NCBI GenBank assembly: GCA_002439085.1
Contig: DJSW01000007.1
Coordinates: forward strand, 26,371 to 90,370
DNA: 64,000 nt
Origin: Alphaproteobacteria bacterium UBA6324
Lineage (GTDB): Bacteria > Pseudomonadota > Alphaproteobacteria > CAAGCB01 > CAG-977
Reading direction: 5' to 3'
Every line of letters begins with the position of its first letter. Within the stretch, counting starts at the first letter, position 1. Below the pieces are notes generated by a model. That model was given only the letters and a program-made list of their open reading frames with translations. It was not told the origin of the DNA and ran no database searches. Shown here in pieces: positions 1 through 38,017 of the stretch. The position numbers and the translations under genes are program-made.

Positions 1-963
1 GCCCGATTCGGCAAGGCGAAAGTATCCCTGCCCGGCGGATGCGCGATCGGAACGCGGCCGGTTGACCTGCACCTGTCGGCGTTGGAAAAAATGGGGGCGG
101 AGATCCGGATTAAAGAAGGGTACATCATCGCTTTCACCAACGGCAAGCGTTTGCAGGGAACGGAAATCCTGTTTCCGAAAGTCACCGTCGGCGGAACGGA
201 AAACATCCTGATGGCCGCGACGCTGGCCGAGGGGCGCACCGTCATCAAAAACGCCGCCCGCGAACCGGAAATCACCGATTTGGCCGAATGTCTGATCAAA
301 ATGGGCGCGAAGATTCAAGGGCTGGGGACGGACACGCTGACCGTTGACGGCGTCGAATCCTTGCATTCCGCGACGCACAAGGTCGTCGCCGACCGCATCG
401 AGGCCGCATCCTATGCGATCGCGGCGGCCATCACGCGCGGCCGAATCGAAATCACGGACGCGAATTTGAACCATCTGGCCGCGGTAGCGCACGTTTTGAC
501 CGACATCGGCGTGACAATCACGGAAACGGAAAACGGCTTTGTTTCCGACGCGACGGACGCCTATCTGATCGGAACAGACGTGATGACGGAACCCTACCCC
601 GGATTTCCGACGGACGTTCAAGCGCAGCTGACGGCTTTGCTGACGACGGTCAGCGGCGCGTCGCTGATCACCGAATCCATTTTTGAAAACCGGTTCATGC
701 ACGTTCCGGAATTGGCGCGCATGGGGGCGAACATCAACGTGCACGGTGTTTCATCGGCCATTGTGCGCGGCGTGCCGAAACTGTCGGGGGCGGAGGTCAT
801 GGCGACGGATCTGCGCGCGTCGATGTGCTTGGTTCTGGCCGGATTGGCGGCGGAGGGCGAAACGATCGTCAACCGCGTCTATCATCTGGATCGCGGCTAT
901 GAGCATTTGGAAGAAAAGCTGTCATCTTGCGGCGCACGTATTGAACGGCTGCAAGGGGATTGA
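1..963 (+). CDS. murA: UDP-N-acetylglucosamine 1-carboxyvinyltransferase MurA (5' end outside the window)
   Basis: The open frame runs from position 1. The C-terminal 293 aa align in my reading to MurA (..[31 protein letters not shown]..). Stop is at 961-963. Confidence 0.88.
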
Positions 964-7499: not shown

Positions 7500-10400
7500 T
7501 CAGAAATTCACTTTCAGATTCACCATGCCCGTGTGATCGGCGTAATCATTTTTAAAACGCCCTTCGTATTTCAGCGACAATTCGCCGCCGCGTCCGAACG
7601 CGATCGCCAAACCCGCGCCGGCTTCAACGCCGAATCTATCCAAAGGATCGCCTTTGACCCGATATTCGGTCAGATCCGGCAAAACAACCGTCCTGTCATC
7701 GTTATCCTGATTGAAATCATACGTCGCCGCCACTTTCAATTCCGGCGTCACCCCGATGGACGGCGCGAAATTCAAATAGTAGTCGTTGGATAGCTTCGCC
7801 CCGACAACCCCCGTCCAAGTGTTTTGAATCGATTTTTTCAACCTCGCCCCAAGCGCGTCGGTATATGCGTTTTGGCGAATGTTCATGAAACGCAAAGCGG
7901 CTTCCGGACTGAATATGCCGAAATCATACCCGACCGCCATTTGCGCGGAAACGGCGTCGGCCGTATAGTTGCTTTCCATTTCAGTCAAACGCGTTTTTTC
8001 GTCATATCTGGAATGGCCGTAACCGGCGACGGCGTTCACATAGGCTTTGTACGGTTTGTATTCGCCATAAACAAAGTAGGTGTGCGTATCAACGTCGGTC
8101 GCAGCGCGCTGCGTCCCGATATCCGTCGAAGCAAAAGCGTACCCCGCGCCGAATTTAAAGTCGTCCGAAACATTTCCTTCCAACCCCGCCGCAAAGCCGC
8201 CGGTATGGGCGTTGAAACCGTCATTTTTATCAAGCTTTGCATAGTTCATCATGCCTTGCGCCCAAACGGAAACGCGGCCGGATTCAAAATCGCCGCCCGA
8301 ACGCCCGCGGTAACGGCGGGAATAATTGCCGTATCCCGTTCTGCCGCGATAACCGCCGCCCCAATGTTCCGAAAAACCGCCGAAACGGGTTTGAACGACG
8401 TTGATGACGGATTTTGCGGCGTTGGAAGCGGCCGTATTCGCGGATTGCGTCACGTCGGGCGCGACTTCGCGCAAAATCTGCTTTGCCGTTTTTTCATCCG
8501 CCTCGTCCAGCAACGTATTGACGCGATCGACCGTCTTCCGGACTTTTTTATCAAATTTGGAAAAAAGATCGTCTTCGATATCCAGAACCTTCGACGCGTC
8601 GCGTTGCGTTTGCGACACTTTTTCTCCGGCCTTTTCCAAATCTTCAATGACGGCTTCGGACGCCGTCGCCAACCGCAGAATATATAAATTGCCGCCGTCC
8701 CAATCTTGCAAACGTTTGATGTTTTTCGCGTCCTGCGGATCAAAGTACGTTTTGGAAACGGCATAGCGCGATGTCGAATAATCCCCCAAATTAAATCCCG
8801 TTCCGTCCGTAATTTTATACAGCGTCGTCACGTCGCGCGAAACGCCCGACATCCCCAGCTTCAACGTCACATTGCTTGCGGACGTATCAACCTTAATGAT
8901 GGCGGACGTTTTCGCCGCGTCCGTTAAAATGGCCGAAATCGTCCCGCCCGTAATGGTATCGGCTTTCAACGTTCCCGCCCCGATGTCCAAAGTTTTTCCG
9001 GCGGCGATGGTAATGTCCTTGATCACGGCGCCATCGGCGAATTTCAACGTGGCAAGCGAATAGTTATCCGCAAAATTCAACGACGCCGTTCCGGATATCG
9101 TTCCCCGGATGCGGGCGTTTTCATGCTGAAAATTGATTTGCGTTTCTGAAAAATCCGCCTGCGCGTTCAACACGCCGCCCAAATTCAACCGTCCGCCGTT
9201 TTCAAAATGCAGAACGTTCCCGTCGTTCGACCCAACGTTCAAAACCGCGTTTTTGGCAATGTTCAGCGTCGAATTGTCCAATGAAACCGTCCCGCTTCTG
9301 GCGGAAACTTCGTTGTTGCCGTTAACGGCGACCGTCGAATTGGAAACGGTCAGATTTCCCGATTTGAAACTGTCGTTGATCAATCCCGACGTTCCGTTCA
9401 TCGTGACAACGGAATTTTGAACCGTCACGTTTCCGCCCCAATTATCCAAAACGACGTTCATATTGTTGTACGCTTCGTACAATTTTTGTTCCAGATATTT
9501 CCAATCCGGCGTTTTCCCGTTGTCCCAAGCATCTGTGACGTGCTTCATCAAATTCGTAGCCGTACCCGTTTCCGAATCCGGTAAAAGGAAACCAAAAGAA
9601 TAAAACGGATCGTCAACGCTGTTCGGCAAATCGTCGCGTTTTTTCGTCGTCGCGTCCACTTTTTTCAATTCGGACAGAATGATGCCGACCGAATCCGCGA
9701 TTTCGGCTTGCGTCAATTTGTTCCGGACGGCGGAAACATCCTTCCAACAATCTTCAAAGCGGTCAAGCGGGTCGGCATAATCTTTGACCTTGCCGTAATC
9801 GGCGGCGGAAATGCTTTCGGCGAAAAGCCCGATCCCCGCCAACGAATTTCCGTTCAGAACCAAATCGGCGTTATCAAAGTTCGTGCTTGCATCAATCGCC
9901 GATTCTGCATTTGAAAACATAAACGCATTATATTCTTCGTACAAAATTTTATCGCCGAACAAATGTTTGTTATGCAGATGTGTGAAATTTCCCGCAAACG
10001 TGTCTTTGTTCAACGTCGCCTTGCCGGACAACGTTCCGACACTTAAATTTGTTTTTGCCAGAGAAATCCCCCTGTCGCCGGAAATGTTCATTTGCCCCGC
10101 GTGCAAATCGTGGAAATTCTTGCCGGCTTTCAAATTTAAAACCGTTTTATTCGAATCAATGTTCAAATCGTTTGCGGTGCCGCTCCACCACCAATCGACG
10201 CCGTCAAAATTTCCGCCGGACAAATTTAAATTGCTTGTACCGCCCAAAGTGAACGCTCCGCGAAACGTGCCGCCGGTGATTGTCAGATCGCCGACGTTCT
10301 TCTTCTCCTCCGTTGTTGGACTATTGCTTGTAAAAGTCATATCCGTAAAATTCCCGCCGGTGATTTTTAATGAATTGTTGGAATAGATCATGCCATTGTC

Positions 10401-10745
10401 GAATGTGCCGTCGGTAATCGTCACATCTTTGCCGGACAAACTCAAATAAGGTGTTGGCGTTGGATAGTCATAGAATGTTCCGCGGAACGTGCCGCCGGTG
10501 ATTGTCAATGAATTTTCGGCGGATATCATAACGTTGTCGAATGTTCCGCCGGAAACGGTGATGTCGGAGATCGGTTCTTCCGTATCGGCGGGGATTTTTG
10601 TGTCCTTGTAAGTGCCGGAGGATATGTCCAAAGCCCGCGCCGGTGAAACGACCGCAAAAGCCGCCAGATTGATCAAAGCGCATTTAATCAGCACCGCACG
10701 ATACCGGCGCGCCAAAGTTTTCAAAGTCGTTTCGGATTGCTTCAT
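7500..10745 (-). CDS. autotransporter adhesin (beta-helical passenger plus C-terminal autotransporter beta-barrel)
   Basis: Signal peptide MKQSETTLKTLARRYRAVLIKCALINLAAFAVVSPARA. Passenger has repeated TITGGTF/LSGGNF motifs. The C-terminal roughly 280 aa resemble an autotransporter barrel, with the final residue Phe (..GMVNLKVNF). GC is lower than the flanking sequence. Confidence 0.85.
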   Translation of the reverse strand: MKQSETTLKTLARRYRAVLIKCALINLAAFAVVSPARALDISSGTYKDTKIPADTEEPISDITVSGGTFDNVMISAENSLTITGGTFRGTFYDYPTPTPYLSLSGKDVTITDGTFDNGMIYSNNSLKITGGNFTDMTFTSNSPTTEEKKNVGDLTITGGTFRGAFTLGGTSNLNLSGGNFDGVDWWWSGTANDLNIDSNKTVLNLKAGKNFHDLHAGQMNISGDRGISLAKTNLSVGTLSGKATLNKDTFAGNFTHLHNKHLFGDKILYEEYNAFMFSNAESAIDASTNFDNADLVLNGNSLAGIGLFAESISAADYGKVKDYADPLDRFEDCWKDVSAVRNKLTQAEIADSVGIILSELKKVDATTKKRDDLPNSVDDPFYSFGFLLPDSETGTATNLMKHVTDAWDNGKTPDWKYLEQKLYEAYNNMNVVLDNWGGNVTVQNSVVTMNGTSGLINDSFKSGNLTVSNSTVAVNGNNEVSARSGTVSLDNSTLNIAKNAVLNVGSNDGNVLHFENGGRLNLGGVLNAQADFSETQINFQHENARIRGTISGTASLNFADNYSLATLKFADGAVIKDITIAAGKTLDIGAGTLKADTITGGTISAILTDAAKTSAIIKVDTSASNVTLKLGMSGVSRDVTTLYKITDGTGFNLGDYSTSRYAVSKTYFDPQDAKNIKRLQDWDGGNLYILRLATASEAVIEDLEKAGEKVSQTQRDASKVLDIEDDLFSKFDKKVRKTVDRVNTLLDEADEKTAKQILREVAPDVTQSANTAASNAAKSVINVVQTRFGGFSEHWGGGYRGRTGYGNYSRRYRGRSGGDFESGRVSVWAQGMMNYAKLDKNDGFNAHTGGFAAGLEGNVSDDFKFGAGYAFASTDIGTQRAATDVDTHTYFVYGEYKPYKAYVNAVAGYGHSRYDEKTRLTEMESNYTADAVSAQMAVGYDFGIFSPEAALRFMNIRQNAYTDALGARLKKSIQNTWTGVVGAKLSNDYYLNFAPSIGVTPELKVAATYDFNQDNDDRTVVLPDLTEYRVKGDPLDRFGVEAGAGLAIAFGRGGELSLKYEGRFKNDYADHTGMVNLKVNF

Positions 10746-10775
10746 TTTCCCATTCCCTTGCACTGTTAAACAAAA

Positions 10776-10960
10776 ACCGCCTTGGTCAGGCGGTCGGGGA
10801 GTAGAAAAACCATATAGTATCAAATGATCCTTTCGGCCTTTAAACGCCCTCCGTTTTTTCAAGGATAGTGACGGAGCGCGTTCTGAACATACGCCAAAAG
10901 CTCCCCGACCTCCGGTTAAGAGTTCGGGGATATTTTCCGGTTTCACCGTTGGCAAACCGG
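10776..10960 (-). promoter_or_regulatory. structured leader element copy A (P1 helix GGUCGGGGAG/CUCCCCGACC, then terminator hairpin CCGCCUGACCAAGGCGG-UUUUU) about 30 nt upstream of the autotransporter start
   Basis: Homologous to 36690-36870. Contains an inverted repeat, an internal compensatory hairpin, and conserved blocks CGUAUGUUCAGAA and UUUAAAGG. Confidence 0.45.
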
Positions 10961-11060
10961 TTTACGACGCATATCGGCGCCGGATACTATAAGAGGTTTT
11001 CTAGGCCTCCGTGCCCGCTAAGACACAACTGAAAGGATACACAATGACGGGCATATGTTC

Positions 11061-11143
11061 AATAAAAAAAGCGGAGACAAAACGGTTTTGTCCCCGCGCA
11101 CAATCGAATTGATTGAAAAAATCCGGATTCGATCAGGTTTTAA
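11061..11143. repeat. direct repeat copy 2 (degenerate duplicate of the 3' end of the gene at 6944-7423)
   Basis: AATAAAAAAAGCGGAGACAAAACGGTTTTGTCCCCGCGCACAATCGAATTGATTGAAAAAATCCGGATTCGATCAGGTTTTAA, aligned to 7343-7423. Confidence 0.7.
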
Positions 11144-11337
11144 AGCAACTTTTCAAACGCCGATTTTGTCAATTCCTCGACATCTTCGCCCTTGGCGATT
11201 TCGGCGATATAGGCGTTGTCGATTTTGAACGCGCCGTTTTTAAACGCATACGCCGCCCGCGCGCCGTATTCGGTGTATTCAACCTTGACGGGAACGACCC
11301 CGACCTTGAAATAACGTAAAGAAACCTTTTCCATCAC
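11140..11337 (-). CDS. small hypothetical protein (65 aa); candidate antitoxin partner of the upstream RelA/SpoT-domain gene
   Basis: The ATG overlaps the upstream gene's stop (ATGA, 4-nt overlap). No family recognised. Confidence 0.5.
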   Translation of the reverse strand: MMEKVSLRYFKVGVVPVKVEYTEYGARAAYAFKNGAFKIDNAYIAEIAKGEDVEELTKSAFEKLL

Positions 11338-11987
11338 CGTCCCCCGACTTTCGCGTTTTTGGCTTTGATCATCAGCGCGGCGGGCTGCTTGTCCTGTTCG
11401 ATTTTCAGCTTGCGCCCCTTGGTGCGTTTGTTGAACGACAGCGCCGCGTCCATATACAGCCCCTGACAGATTTTTTCGCGCATGGCGATTTCTTTCTGTT
11501 CCGCGACGGTCAACGGCCGGTCTTTGGCTTCGGCCGTGATGGAACGTATTTTTTCATAATGGCGGTGCGTTTCCTTGTCAGCCTGCGCGAAATCGCTCAG
11601 CTGAATCTGCATTTCGACGGCAAAGCCGTTCTTTTCCGGAAAAATGTATTTCAAATCGCGGTATCCGCGTTCGTTGGGCTTGTCCATACGGTCGGCTTCG
11701 CGGATCGGCGTCGTGTATTCCTTGACGGCCTTTTTGATCGCGTCCACCTGTTCCAGCGAATCGCAGATCAGGCGACAGCGCGCCAGATCCTGCAGCTGCG
11801 ACACGTCGCCGCGGTATTTCGCGTTCAATTTTTCTTCGGCGCGTTCGCGGCCTTTCAACGGCGCGGATTTGAATTCGCACCCGAATTGCTTGGCCAGTTT
11901 TTCACCGAAAGCGTCCAAAGAGGGCTTTGCCTCCGCCGCCAGCTTGTACGCTTCGTCCAAAGTTTTGGGAATCTGTCTTTCCACCAT
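11334..11987 (-). CDS. RelA/SpoT-domain nucleotidyltransferase (small alarmone synthetase-like; candidate toxSAS)
   Basis: Synthetase-domain motifs are present: KGRERAEEKL, DLARCRLICDSLEQV (cf. DIAGIRII), NERGYRDLKYIF (cf. NGYRSLH), VEMQIQLSDFAQ (cf. EIQIRT) and HRHYEKIR. The C-terminal tail is basic. Length is 217 aa. Confidence 0.72.
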   Translation of the reverse strand: MVERQIPKTLDEAYKLAAEAKPSLDAFGEKLAKQFGCEFKSAPLKGRERAEEKLNAKYRGDVSQLQDLARCRLICDSLEQVDAIKKAVKEYTTPIREADRMDKPNERGYRDLKYIFPEKNGFAVEMQIQLSDFAQADKETHRHYEKIRSITAEAKDRPLTVAEQKEIAMREKICQGLYMDAALSFNKRTKGRKLKIEQDKQPAALMIKAKNAKVGGR

Positions 11988-35267: not shown

Positions 35268-36677
35268 TCATTTCCACTTTCTTTTCAAAAAAGCGGTGGC
35301 CGGTTTTTCGACATATTTATGAACGAACACGCCCAGCACCCAAGACAGCAAGACCGTCCCCGCTATAACAAAACCGTTGTGTTGTTGCAAAAATGAAAAC
35401 CGTTTGTACCAATGCAGCACGACATCCATTTCCAAAAACCAGTGCGTCATGTAAATAGCAAAGGAACAAGCGGATATTTTCGCAAAAAACGGGCGGTTGA
35501 AAAATCGTGAAACTGCGCCCTGCTTCATACCGAACAACAAAATCAGTCCAGCGAAACAGACGACGGCGAAAATCTTGTTTTCCGGACACGCGCCTTTTAC
35601 AAACACGATGGCGGCGGCATAAAGCGTCAACGCGATTTCCGCAATTGTGCAAAACAATGCGTTCGCCGGTTTTCGTTTTTGAAATGCCAGATAAAGCGAC
35701 GCCGTAAAATACCCCAATCCAATTCCGGCGACACCGCGCAGCAAACGAACGGAAAAAACACCGCCGATCATGCCGTCCCAACCGAAATGGCGACAGGCGG
35801 CATAGGAAAAGAACGTCAGCAACGCGAAAATCAAACGGTTGGATTGGATGTTGCAAATTTTCATCATGTAAAAATAAAACAGGGACACCCAGAACAAAAC
35901 CGCCAAAAACCAGCTTTGCGGCGGCACAACATCATCCGACAATCCCGTGCTTTGCAAAAACAAAACATTTGAAACCACGGGGACAAGCTTGGCTTTCCCC
36001 AAAAAAGCGCACAACAGCAGCAACGGCACGAAATGTATGATTTTCGATTTGGCGAAATCGAACGTCGTTCTGGCCGGATCAAACGTCAACATCATAAAAA
36101 AGCCGGATAAAATGAAAAAGAATTCAACCCCCAGTCAACCTTCGTTAACGATATCCAGTCTTTCCGTCAAATGATAAACGACGATCCCGAACGTGAAAAC
36201 CAAACGCAGAAATTCCATGTTCATCATCGCCGGAACCTTGTCATCAAACGGCCTTACGCCATTCACAACCGTGTGCCACAGGCAAAAATACAAAAATCCC
36301 AGCAGCAGAAAAACTTTAAAATCGAAATGCGCGGCGGGTTTGAACGTTTGCGAAGACAGCGCGCTCATATCGCGAAAAACGCTTTTTTTATCACCGGCGA
36401 TTTTAACGTTTGCGATTTGCGTCCCTGCCGGCGGCGACAAATTCAGCTCCGTCATTTCATCCGCCCATATTCGCGCGGACGCCCTGCCGTTTTTGACTAT
36501 CCGCGCAGACGCGGAACGAACCGTTCCCGCCGCGTCTTTGTATGAAATGGCGATTTTTCCGTTTTCAGCCGTTGTTTCGACCGCGATTTTAAACATCGCG
36601 TCCAAAAACAAACAACGCGTAAAAAACAGCGTCGCCGCCGTCAGAAAAAGGATGAAAAACCTCTTTGATCCGGACAT
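35268..36677 (-). pseudogene. acyltransferase family 3 (OafA-like) gene interrupted by an in-frame TGA (36135-36137), with an N-terminal 130-aa signal-peptide extension
   Basis: ORFs 36135-36677 and 35268-36095 share one frame. Read-through gives ..FLRLVFTFGIVVYHLTERLDIVNEG*LGVEFFFILSGFFM.., the Acyl_transf_3 core. GC is about 45%. Confidence 0.6.
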
Positions 36678-36689
36678 ATTCCCCTCCCG

Positions 36690-36870
36690 TAAAACCGCCT
36701 GAAATCAGGCGGATCGGGGAGTTGAAAATCATACCGTGAAAATGACCGATCGACCTTTAAAGCCGTACGATAAAAAATCGGGGCTTCTGAACATACGTCA
36801 AGCCCTCCCCGATCCATGGGAATCAGGGATATAATGCCGTCCCGCCATATGCGAAACGGATTGTACGGCG
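36690..36870 (-). promoter_or_regulatory. structured leader element copy B (P1 helix GGAUCGGGGAG/CUCCCCGAUCC, then terminator hairpin CCGCCUGAUUUCAGGCGG-UUUU) 15 nt upstream of the RBS and start of the acyltransferase gene
   Basis: Homologous to 10776-10960. Confidence 0.45.
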
Positions 36871-37159
36871 CTTATATCAAACACCGCTCACAGTAAGAGC
36901 TTTCTACGGCTCCGCGCCCGCCAAGGCGCTGTTGCGGACGAACAATTCATCCGCAATTAACGGCAGGTTACGGAATTTTTCGATCAAATGCAATCGCAAA
37001 AACCGCCTGAACCGGCAAGCGAACATATTGTCCGCTTTTTCATTTGACTCGGCGGGCGGGGTTTGTTATGGTTGATTTTGTAATTTTTCAGCAGTCCTGT
37101 TAACGGCTGCAAATCCTGAGGTCACCGTTCGGTGGCCTTAGTTGTATTCGGAGAGTGTC

Positions 37160-38017
37160 TTGGTCAAAATCTGCTACATTGACGAATCCGGCGATTTGGG
37201 CACCCTGCCCGTCGAATCCAATCCCGACGGAAACCACCAGCCCGTTTTGGCCATTGCGGGCATTTTCGCCGATCACGAGGATTTGTACAATCTGACGCAC
37301 GATTTCATCAAGCTGAAATACCGTTACTACCCCGGATTGAACTATCCGACGGACAAATTCCTTGACCGCATCATCCCCGAAATCAAAGGCGCCGACCTGC
37401 GCCGCAACGCCATGCGCGGCAGCAAGCGGATCAAGCGTCACGCCATCGGTTTTCTGGACAGAATCGTCGATCTGTTTTACAAATACGACATCCGCATCGT
37501 CGGCCGCATCTGGGTGAAAATCCCCGGCCAGCCTTTTAACGGCAAAGCGGTTTACACCTCGTCGATCCAAAGCATCTACACCTATTTCGACAACTATTTG
37601 CAGCAAAAGCAGGATTACGGCGTCGTCATCGCGGACAGTCGGGATTACATGAAAAACATCAACCTGTCGCATTCCGTTTTCACGCAGAAATTCCGCCATT
37701 TGTACCCGCTGTACCAAAACATCGTCGAAATGCCGTGTTTCGGGCACAGCAACAATCTGGCCGGATTGCAGCTGTGCGACATCCTGTGTTCCGCGTTTCT
37801 GTTCCCGATCGCCAGCTGGGTTTATTGTTCCGACATCGTGCACAACGTCCACGTCCAACCCGCCGCGGTCGAACTGCGCGACCGTTACGGCCACCGTTTG
37901 CGCGAACTGCAGCACCGCTTTGTCACCAAGGACGGCTTCAATATGGGCGGCATCGTCGTTTCCGATCCGATCCGGAAACAAAACGCCGTCGCCATGTTCA
38001 AGGACGTTGCGAAGTAA
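37160..38017 (+). CDS. DUF3800-family protein
   Basis: The N-terminal motif VKICYIDESGDLG is the DUF3800 signature. A TTG start at 37160 follows the GGAGAG RBS. The track ORF begins at 37142. Confidence 0.65.
   Translation: MVKICYIDESGDLGTLPVESNPDGNHQPVLAIAGIFADHEDLYNLTHDFIKLKYRYYPGLNYPTDKFLDRIIPEIKGADLRRNAMRGSKRIKRHAIGFLDRIVDLFYKYDIRIVGRIWVKIPGQPFNGKAVYTSSIQSIYTYFDNYLQQKQDYGVVIADSRDYMKNINLSHSVFTQKFRHLYPLYQNIVEMPCFGHSNNLAGLQLCDILCSAFLFPIASWVYCSDIVHNVHVQPAAVELRDRYGHRLRELQHRFVTKDGFNMGGIVVSDPIRKQNAVAMFKDVAK

Follow-up and report, generated by a model that had tools for sequence, protein, structure and literature searches.

A stretch of 64,000 nucleotides (nt) of Alphaproteobacteria bacterium UBA6324 (contig DJSW01000007.1, positions 26,371 to 90,370; the window from here on) carries two homologous structured leaders, copy A in front of an autotransporter gene and copy B in front of an acyltransferase gene. 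They belong to a family of more than 130 copies, found in at least 29 species-level genomes of gut and rumen Alphaproteobacteria. Each copy appears to be the 3' sensor and output module of a self-contained leader of ~300 nt, which would have its own sigma-70-type promoter and control the next gene in cis through a relay of alternative pairings among three short sequences (boxes a, b, and c) and the Shine-Dalgarno (SD) sequence of that gene. The analysis demonstrates the family with its helices, complementarities that exclude one another, and the association with particular genes, while transcription, the direction of the switch, and its trigger are deduced. A cis-regulatory leader that works through this relay is, in our judgment, quite probable, while a small ligand as its trigger is put forward tentatively. 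For the explanation as a whole, we give a compromise between these two estimates, a probability of about 0.6.

Two homologous leaders and their family

Both copies lie on the minus strand, each directly 5' of a start codon (ATG at 10745 for copy A and at 36677 for copy B; window coordinates are on the minus strand unless marked +). A reading of the letters of the window alone (the sequence-only reading) had already recognized them as homologous and collinear, which a pairwise alignment bears out, with 75% column identity across ~250 nt. Their extent had been underestimated, since the conserved unit reaches ~180 nt further upstream, and what had been taken for the whole leader is only the 3' module of a ~300-nt unit that also comprises a promoter and another five hairpins. 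The outer helix TCGGGGAG...CTCCCCGA is present at two places in the window, no more, and in none of 100 shuffles. A covariance model of the core (R1) scored 88.2 bits for copy A and 93.1 bits for copy B (E ~1e-21) and found no third copy in the whole 64-kb window. The isolated cores are more stable than their own shuffles (z = -3.1 for copy A and -3.7 for copy B). The same locus is also present in a human-gut assembly.

To collect further members, species-representative genomes were scanned with the pattern CGTATGTTCAGAA-N15-45-TTTAAAGG. This gave 71 loci, ~65 of them in metagenome-assembled genomes (MAGs) of gut and rumen Alphaproteobacteria and covering 29 species-level genomes. Since misaligned loops in the raw MAFFT alignment left RNAalifold with a poor consensus, it was replaced by a manual structure, a covariance model, and pair counting; R1 was built on an alignment of 61 copies (A2) with the structure written by hand. 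R1 matched 72 times in the genome loci, four of these without the search pattern, and 64 times in loci from a looser metagenome scan. The idea of a two-copy family, offered before as an alternative, thus gives way to one of >130 homologs with preserved pairing and up to seven copies per genome (six in UBA2903). BLAST searches of plasmid and phage collections gave no match to the leader, and viral contigs gave a single match to the family.

No known riboswitch class had been recognized in the two leaders, and Rfam 15 agrees. At gathering thresholds, none of its 4,227 models, which include the known riboswitches, T-box, ROSE, alphaproteobacterial small RNAs (sRNAs), and 224 motifs of Weinberg 2017, matched anywhere in the window, and scans of both full leaders at E-values of up to 10 returned noise only (≤20 bits against cut-offs of 40 to 98). 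One weak match to cow-rumen-1, at 10943-10996 (+), overlaps hairpins H4 and H5 (16 bits against a cut-off of 53, E = 0.35); it lies on the opposite strand and was taken as chance. A description of the family was found neither in the full-text literature searched nor in the principal catalogue of structured RNAs from the human microbiome.

A covarying three-way junction

The module flagged at first, ~120 nt, is only the 3' third of the conserved unit and consists of a three-way junction that spans 10792-10912 in copy A and 36711-36815 in copy B. Helix P1, formed by box b (UCGGGGAG) with box c (CUCYCCGA) plus three outer pairs, closes the junction. P2 (CUUUUGRC with GYCAAAAG) leads into a large internal loop made of J2/3 (CGUAUGUUCAGAA) and J3/2 (UUUAAAGG), beyond which lies P3, a distal hairpin of variable length and sequence; P4 is a side hairpin. 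In copy A, the core alone forms P1 to P4 in its minimum free energy (MFE) fold, with box b, the 5' strand of P1, at 10901-10912, P2 at 10893-10900 with 10830-10837, J2/3 (GUAUGUUCAGAA) at 10881-10892, P3 at 10845-10880, J3/2 (UUUAAAG) at 10838-10844, P4 at 10808-10829, J4/1 at 10802-10807, and box c, the 3' strand of P1, at 10792-10801. The corresponding parts of copy B are box b at 36805-36815, P2 at 36797-36804 with 36747-36754, J2/3 at 36785-36796, P3 at 36762-36784, J3/2 at 36755-36761, P4 at 36728-36746, J4/1 at 36722-36727, and box c at 36711-36721.

On alignment A3, 93.0% of the cells in core pairs are paired, compared with 76.8% in shuffles and 31 to 54% in slid controls, and 23 of the 29 core pairs have changed on both sides. 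Covariation is found in P2, P3, P4, and the outer pairs of P1, the latter in Watson-Crick combinations (GAU/AUC, GGU/ACC, and GUU/AAC). In low-GC relatives (L075 and L111), P2 is wholly replaced yet still paired (AUAAUAGC/GCUAUUAU). The nucleotides of the internal loop (AUGUUCAGAA/UUUAAAG) are near-invariant. Covarying helices around conserved junction nucleotides, the loops being partly fixed by the search pattern, are what would be expected of the sensing domain of a riboswitch.

Several structural details proposed from the two copies can be judged against this model. The internal hairpin does keep its pairing despite the change in sequence. The extra A-U pair assigned to copy B amounts to one further pair, the rest being a compensatory substitution of G-C by A-U at the second outer pair of P1. 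Three blocks described as single stranded turn out to be helical, GCUUG as the 5' strand of P2 and CAUUU and UAUG as the two strands of P4.

Putative promoter and 5' domain

Alignments of the upstream flanks showed the order of the complete unit to be a sigma-70-like promoter, hairpins H1 to H5, AUUAUA, box a, the junction, a hairpin, the SD sequence, and the ATG. The promoter pattern is TTGNNN-N17-TAtcCT, followed by a variable H1 and four conserved hairpins (H2 to H5). A site of the form TTGNNN-N16-18-TANNNT lies 150 to 190 nt upstream of P1 in 89 of 105 unique copies, against 18 of 105 on the opposite strand. In copy A, the promoter-like site, whose alignment columns are conserved, lies at 11034-11062, with a -35 element (TTGAAC, 11057-11062), a 17-nt spacer, and a -10 element (TATCCT, 11034-11039), although it scores below an Escherichia coli consensus scan; in copy B, the site lies at 36965-36993 (-35 TTGCAT, 36988-36993; 17-nt spacer; -10 TAACCT, 36965-36970). 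Upstream of the promoter-like sites, copy A is bounded by the intrinsic terminator of a RelA_SpoT-like operon (11071-11097; terminator-like, 12 pairs, T7 tail) and copy B by a terminator-like hairpin found in a terminator scan (37003-37022). Because each unit sits between an upstream terminator and its gene, the leaders, that of copy A included, look like separate transcription units.

The 5' domain covers 10920-11026 in copy A (H2 at 11011-11026, H3 at 10992-11010, H4 at 10965-10982, and H5 at 10937-10961) and 36819-36956 in copy B (H1 at 36932-36956, H2 at 36914-36929, H3 at 36896-36913, H4 at 36866-36886, and H5 at 36837-36860), where the full-length MFE fold contains all five hairpins. A separate covariance model for this domain (R2) scored 108 bits for copy A and 122 bits for copy B and found only these two in the window; elsewhere it matched beside nearly every core. 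The cores without it are distant ones (L048, L060, the second copy of L063, L075, and L111). Across H2 to H6, the last formed by boxes a and b, 87.5% (A4) and 91.5% (A7) of the cells are paired, against 38 to 49% with slid partners, in MAFFT alignments that were not fitted to the structure and in which helices were assigned manually. Two further features were dropped after inspection by eye. A pseudoknot joining the H4 loop (GAUAU) to the AUAUC that directly precedes box a showed no covariation, and a correlation of the H2/H3 junction (UCGGAG) with the CUCUCCGA variant of box c seemed to be a matter of subfamily structure only.

The unit could also be viewed as an element acting at the DNA level, such as a miniature inverted-repeat transposable element (MITE), a mobile promoter cassette, or a site of recombination, inversion, or island attachment, with the hairpins as by-products of inverted repeats. 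Its downstream genes are of classic phase-variable classes, boxes a and c are direct repeats with b as their inverted repeat, rearranged copies are present (L155 and L015), and at six loci the leader breaks off directly behind box c, where a common island sequence (HTH_17/AlpA-like, SIR2, resolvase, and HsdR) takes over. Nevertheless, we consider such an origin improbable. Between five and nine separate helices change in sequence yet stay paired, which DNA repeats do not require; no terminal inverted repeats occur at the outer ends of the unit, and none flank the promoter; the 3' end is tailored to the SD sequence of each gene; and plasmid and phage collections hold no match. In ~130 assembled copies, the core has one orientation with respect to box a, the promoter, and the gene, whereas true invertons occur in both. 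A repeat of 12 nt shared by the -35 region and J2/3 of copy A was at chance level and confined to that subfamily, and inverted repeats around the promoter with both orientations among assemblies were not seen. Nor does the unit qualify as a MITE (terminal inverted repeats, target-site duplication, and insertion in either orientation); its ends are the promoter and the SD sequence, where conservation stops, and its orientation relative to the gene is fixed. The family does resemble the invertons of gut Bacteroides in its downstream classes (restriction-modification and surface structures) and habitat, differing in having no inverted repeats around the promoter, a single orientation, and covarying helices. 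It is also like the Correia and ERIC repeats in being a multicopy intergenic element near gene starts that can carry promoter activity; unlike these MITEs, it lacks terminal inverted repeats and has a fixed orientation, an SD-tailored 3' end, and many independently covarying helices.

A proposed a/b/c/SD relay and expression platform

Box a (AUCCCCGAACUC, 10920-10931, in copy A and AUCCCUGAUUCC, 36819-36830, in copy B) had escaped the sequence-only reading, and its presence turns the layout into a four-segment relay. Its core, UCCCCGA, is complementary to box b, and the two would pair to form hairpin H6. Box b could instead pair with box c to form P1, closing the three-way junction with its P2-P3 arm and P4, and box c could instead pair with the SD sequence across the intervening hairpin, which carries a U-tract in ~60% of the copies. 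By default the leader would be OFF, with a paired to b, c paired to the SD sequence, and the hairpin complete, the SD sequence being hidden and transcription terminating where a U-tract is present. In the putative ON state, P1 would form, pull box c away, free the SD sequence, and shorten the terminator stem by 3 to 4 pairs.

The full-length MFE folds of copies A and B both contain H6 together with the pairing of box c to the SD region. In copy A, the G-rich stretch of the SD region (AAGGGAAUGGGAAA, which with the autotransporter ATG at 10745-10743 occupies 10743-10759) pairs with box c and J4/1; in copy B, the partner strands are CUCCC in box c and GGGAG in the SD sequence, which meet across the hairpin. 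When the 3' segment was folded without box b, box c paired with the SD zone in 93 of 108 unique copies. Little energy separates the two states, the P1-forced fold being a median of 3.1 kcal/mol less stable than the H6-forced one, with H6 favored in 70% of 83 copies. In its extension, box a has U's that tolerate A or G and so remains wobble-compatible. Box c variants are distributed over SD variants as CUCCCC/GGGG in 34 copies, CUCCCC/GGAG in 15, CUCUCC/GGGG in 3, and CUCUCC/GGAG in 19. Every copy with a readable flank lies on the same strand as the next open reading frame (ORF) and ends 30 to 50 nt before its ATG. Judging from this arrangement, the leader would occupy the 5' untranslated region directly upstream of a same-strand gene, as riboswitches do, and its platform pairing would be mutually exclusive with the sensor helix, box c being common to P1 and the SD helix.

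The terminal hairpin of copy A (GACCGCCUGACCAAGGCGGU plus U5, 10771-10795) scores as terminator-like (10795-10775), and its first 3 to 4 nt are the last nucleotides of the 3' strand of P1. Copy B has a hairpin (CCGCCUGAUUUCAGGCGG, 36695-36712), UUUU, the SD sequence (GGGAGGGGAA, 36679-36688), and the ATG (36677-36675) within 36675-36712. The hairpin with U-tract that had been described for both thus holds for copy A as a scored terminator, while copy B, with four U's, was not scored as one. Over the family, the hairpin starts within the final 5 nt of the 3' strand of P1 in 95 of 108 copies, and these are divided between 61 with a U-tract and 34 with none. A structured 5' leader had been correctly suspected, but pure transcription attenuation is too narrow a reading because the U-tract is found in only 61 of 108 copies; from the predicted folds, the dominant output looks like sequestration of the SD sequence by the 3' strand of the outer helix. 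Poly-T tracts (5 to 8 T) between the SD sequence and the ATG were also considered as a slippage ON/OFF device, which was rejected because all tract lengths are compatible with initiation.

These terminators also bear on whether the unit is a stand-alone sRNA gene, with its own promoter, ~300 nt, and its own terminator, that acts in trans and lies next to genes incidentally or by read-through. The promoter at a fixed distance, the terminator-like hairpin in 61 of 108 copies, and the upstream terminators that isolate the unit are all as such a gene would have them. Still, a promoter and a Rho-independent terminator do not bound all the members, since in 34 of 108 copies the hairpin, without a U-tract, runs straight into the SD sequence. 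Each copy is oriented as the next ORF and ends 30 to 50 nt before it, box c covaries with the SD sequence of the neighboring gene, and six or more near-identical genes per genome, each fixed to a different accessory gene, would be hard to explain. We regard a trans-acting sRNA gene as improbable, too.

The logic of the relay, in which pairings 1:2 and 3:4 exclude 2:3 and 3:4 is the terminator or sequestrator, is that of the four-segment attenuators (trp and pyrBI), which raises ribosome-mediated control through a short leader ORF, starting either at an AUG in the H5 loop and running across box a or at an AUG in J2/3 with box b as its SD sequence. Many copies do have the H5-loop AUG with an ORF of 12 to 17 codons across box a, and the J2/3 AUG is invariant, ~10 to 12 nt after GGGGAG. 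The H5-loop AUG is, on the other side, absent in many copies and has no SD sequence, and the frame across box a differs between classes. The stops of the J2/3 ORF are scattered, 35 before or at J3/2, 43 in P2', P4, or J4/1, and 30 at or beyond box c, giving ORFs of 4 to >53 codons because the length of P3 is not a multiple of three. With neither frames nor stops conserved, there is no conserved short ORF with start and SD over segment 1 or 2, and a leader-peptide attenuator seems the least likely of the alternatives, highly improbable on these data. The leader differs further from trp and pyrBI, besides having no conserved leader peptide, in that its central pair of segments encloses a conserved structured junction.

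Downstream genes

Copy A precedes an autotransporter gene of 1,081 amino acids (aa) at 7500-10745 (PF03797, E = 2e-32). The gene behind copy B (35268-36677) had been called an OafA-like acyltransferase, and homology to Acyl_transf_3 supports this (Pfam and BLASTP), with the qualification that it is split into ORFs of 180 and 275 aa by an in-frame TGA. The 180-aa ORF right after the leader has no Pfam match, but in BLASTP the two ORFs align to residues 2-177 and 198-482 of the intact 483-aa Acyl_transf_3 homolog of L058; as these are successive parts of one protein, we consider the gene a split acyltransferase. The split is due to a single TGA at ~36135-36137 (within 36095-36140, ...NEG*LGVEFFF...), at which the intact homolog has Trp (RSSWLSVEFFF), and two other assemblies carry the identical split. 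The TGA may mark a pseudogene or else act as a site of read-through or recoding.

To survey the regulon, 63 distinct downstream proteins were scanned for Pfam domains. DNA methyltransferases and restriction-type enzymes form the largest class, with EcoRI-type adenine methylases (EcoRI_methylase) in 10 of the 63, N6/N4 methylases (N6_N4_Mtase) in 5, a Type ISP enzyme, and an SNF2 helicase. Where the EcoRI-type methylases were examined (L008 4358-6450 and L026 3150-5382), genes for GmrSD_N (DUF262) and HNH nuclease proteins come next, in a methylase-first, two-gene restriction-like operon. Autotransporters account for 5 or more of the 63 and Acyl_transf_3 proteins for 3. Sugar-related genes are represented by GT2, GT8, and DUF4422 glycosyltransferases, LicD with a cytidylyltransferase domain, DegT, and an epimerase, and the remainder includes two pilins, TRL-type and other lipoproteins, and four XRE regulators (HTH_3). 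In UBA2903, the copies precede three methylases, an acyltransferase, a glycosyltransferase, and an autotransporter. Control of surface genes by a shared signal, as suggested from the two copies in the window, would cover only part of the regulon, which is wider and led by the methyltransferase class. Genes of these kinds are commonly known as contingency or phase-variable genes; as a set they make sense as "defence plus surface" and point to no metabolite.

Nature of the trigger and relation to known systems

We suppose that a factor bound at the conserved junction favors P1 and that this factor is most likely a small molecule or a nucleotide signal; the leader would then be an ON riboswitch. 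Such a signal would coordinate DNA-methylase and restriction operons, enzymes that modify lipopolysaccharide (LPS) and O-antigen, adhesins, and pilins. The main rival keeps the same cis relay and replaces the ligand by a macromolecule, either an RNA-binding protein, a specialized antiterminator or NusG-like factor, or a trans-acting sRNA, that would bind the invariant boxes or the junction loops and set all the copies in a cell at once. The identity of boxes and loop sequences across all copies of a genome would suit a single trans factor, and a regulon of restriction-modification, LPS, adhesin, pilus, and island genes looks more like what protein regulators of accessory genes control than like the regulon of a metabolite. 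This trigger would also sit well with a large conserved 5' domain that has no obvious role in the relay and with the six copies that end in a short terminator with no adjacent ORF, which could yield free RNAs. Against it, no candidate partner gene was found beside the copies, distant copies keep the core without the 5' domain, and a near-invariant loop in a covarying junction, tandem copies, and two types of platform are the usual signature of a ligand-sensing RNA. A protein or trans-acting RNA seems somewhat less likely than a small molecule and is a possible but rather doubtful trigger. Tandem cores, an arrangement known for riboswitches, occur at L063 6190-6460, L048 4071-4273, and L111 2030-2417, before polysaccharide-synthesis or lipoprotein genes (DegT aminotransferase and GT2), and their downstream members have no 5' domain.

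Several points weigh against the reading of the leader as a ligand-triggered relay. The test in which the box c variant tracks the SD variant (Fisher p of 2e-5) ignores phylogeny, and part of the signal for pairing of box c with the SD sequence is trivial because any anti-SD-like, C-rich box pairs with an SD sequence. Pairing of a with b is supported by conservation, wobble compatibility, and two divergent lineages and not by true covariation, since the cores of boxes a, b, and c hardly vary. Of the alignments, A3 and A5 had been fitted to the model, and the blocks CGUAUGUUCAGAA and UUUAAAGG belonged to the search patterns, which is why conservation of the loops is tested independently by only five matches found by the covariance model alone; these retain AUGUYCARR and UUAAA. 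The MAGs that supplied the sequences form a fairly narrow clade, and many of the leaders are orthologous; the covariation counts consequently over-count events. The transcription start site and any termination are predictions from motifs, hairpins H1 to H5 are without an explained role and are absent from distant copies, and the regulon has no metabolic theme that would indicate a ligand.

Among known systems, the closest working analogues are translational ON riboswitches of the add adenine type (Vibrio vulnificus) and the four-segment attenuators; the leader is a member of neither. Like the add type, it has a sensor built as a three-way junction closed by P1, the 3' strand of P1 alternates between P1 and an SD-hiding helix, the states are close in energy, and family members use either terminator or SD-only platforms. 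It differs in having no sequence or structure match in Rfam, an extra upstream box a that competes for the 5' strand of P1, a promoter and a conserved ~150-nt 5' domain that accompany the sensor, and a regulon of restriction-modification and surface genes instead of metabolism. The c-di-GMP-I riboswitch (GEMM-I, RF01051) is likewise a leader common to adhesin, pilus, and surface genes across a genome and sometimes in tandem, but the leaders described here have no Rfam match to it even at E-values of 5 to 10, their conserved nucleotides differ, and methylase and restriction genes dominate. The JUMPstart/ops-RfaH and EAR/LoaP leaders also precede LPS, surface, and horizontally acquired operons as a common 5' leader, followed by terminators. 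In those systems a NusG paralog responds to a short signal in DNA or RNA, in contrast to a ~300-nt multihelix RNA with an SD-sequestering relay in which no ops-like element was identified. With neither an Rfam match nor a leader peptide, the family is filed here as a structured cis-regulatory leader and orphan riboswitch candidate, unusual in its size, its linked promoter and 5' domain, its extra competitor box, and its restriction-modification and surface regulon.

A stronger version, which we regard as possible though doubtful, would make it a new riboswitch class whose ~105-nt junction senses a cellular signal (e.g., a nucleotide second messenger or infection or envelope stress) and switches ON contingency genes genome-wide. 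The genes turned ON would be restriction-modification and anti-phage operons, O-antigen- and LPS-modifying enzymes, autotransporter adhesins, and pilins of uncultured gut and rumen Alphaproteobacteria. Such a system would match, at the level of RNA, the phase variation that gut Bacteroides achieve by inverting DNA. One RNA leader would then link anti-phage restriction-modification with the surface structures seen by phages and host immunity, giving a handle on the regulation of accessory genes in these widespread bacteria. To the orphan riboswitch candidates it would add a large one whose regulon is unusual, and it would supply a portable promoter-plus-leader cassette with a directly testable four-box relay. 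The family is, besides, a sequence marker for variable defence and surface loci in gut and rumen alphaproteobacterial MAGs.

Neighboring genes and unusual copies

Directly upstream of the copy A unit (11140-11987) lie genes for a RelA_SpoT-domain protein of 217 aa, of the small alarmone synthetase type, and for an ORF of 64 to 65 aa, a pair that resembles a toxSAS-antitoxin system. Copy B has a divergent DUF3800 gene (37142-38017, +); genes of this type have their own RNA motifs in Rfam, none of which scored beside copy B. At loci orthologous to that of copy A (L015 4891-5001 and L120 1124-1234), the leader is broken inside P4 and followed by a new hairpin and a T-run, without the autotransporter, which is evidence of gene loss or turnover at such sites.

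A divergent low-GC version of boxes a and b, the core, and box c is found at L075 (= L150) 767-866 (-). It lies at the edge of a phage-like contig that carries a large terminase, AAA_24, and AAA_25, and the ORF that it precedes has 130 aa. At L155 980-1279 (-), a second 5' domain passes, beyond box a, directly into the 3' end of a neighboring gene, and a further piece consisting of the promoter, H1, and H2 is fused into a coding region; this is either a rearrangement or a metagenome misassembly at the repeated leader. At the six loci where the leader is cut right after CUCYCCG (L033, L035, L047, L065, L070, and L074; e.g., L070 207-420, where the leader is additionally truncated at its 5' end), a common sequence with a short terminator (AAAGCGUUUCCGCUUUUU) follows, then an HTH_17/AlpA-like gene and, beyond it, defence or island genes (SIR2_2, a serine recombinase, and Type I HsdR). 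These sites could be an island junction or a different platform.

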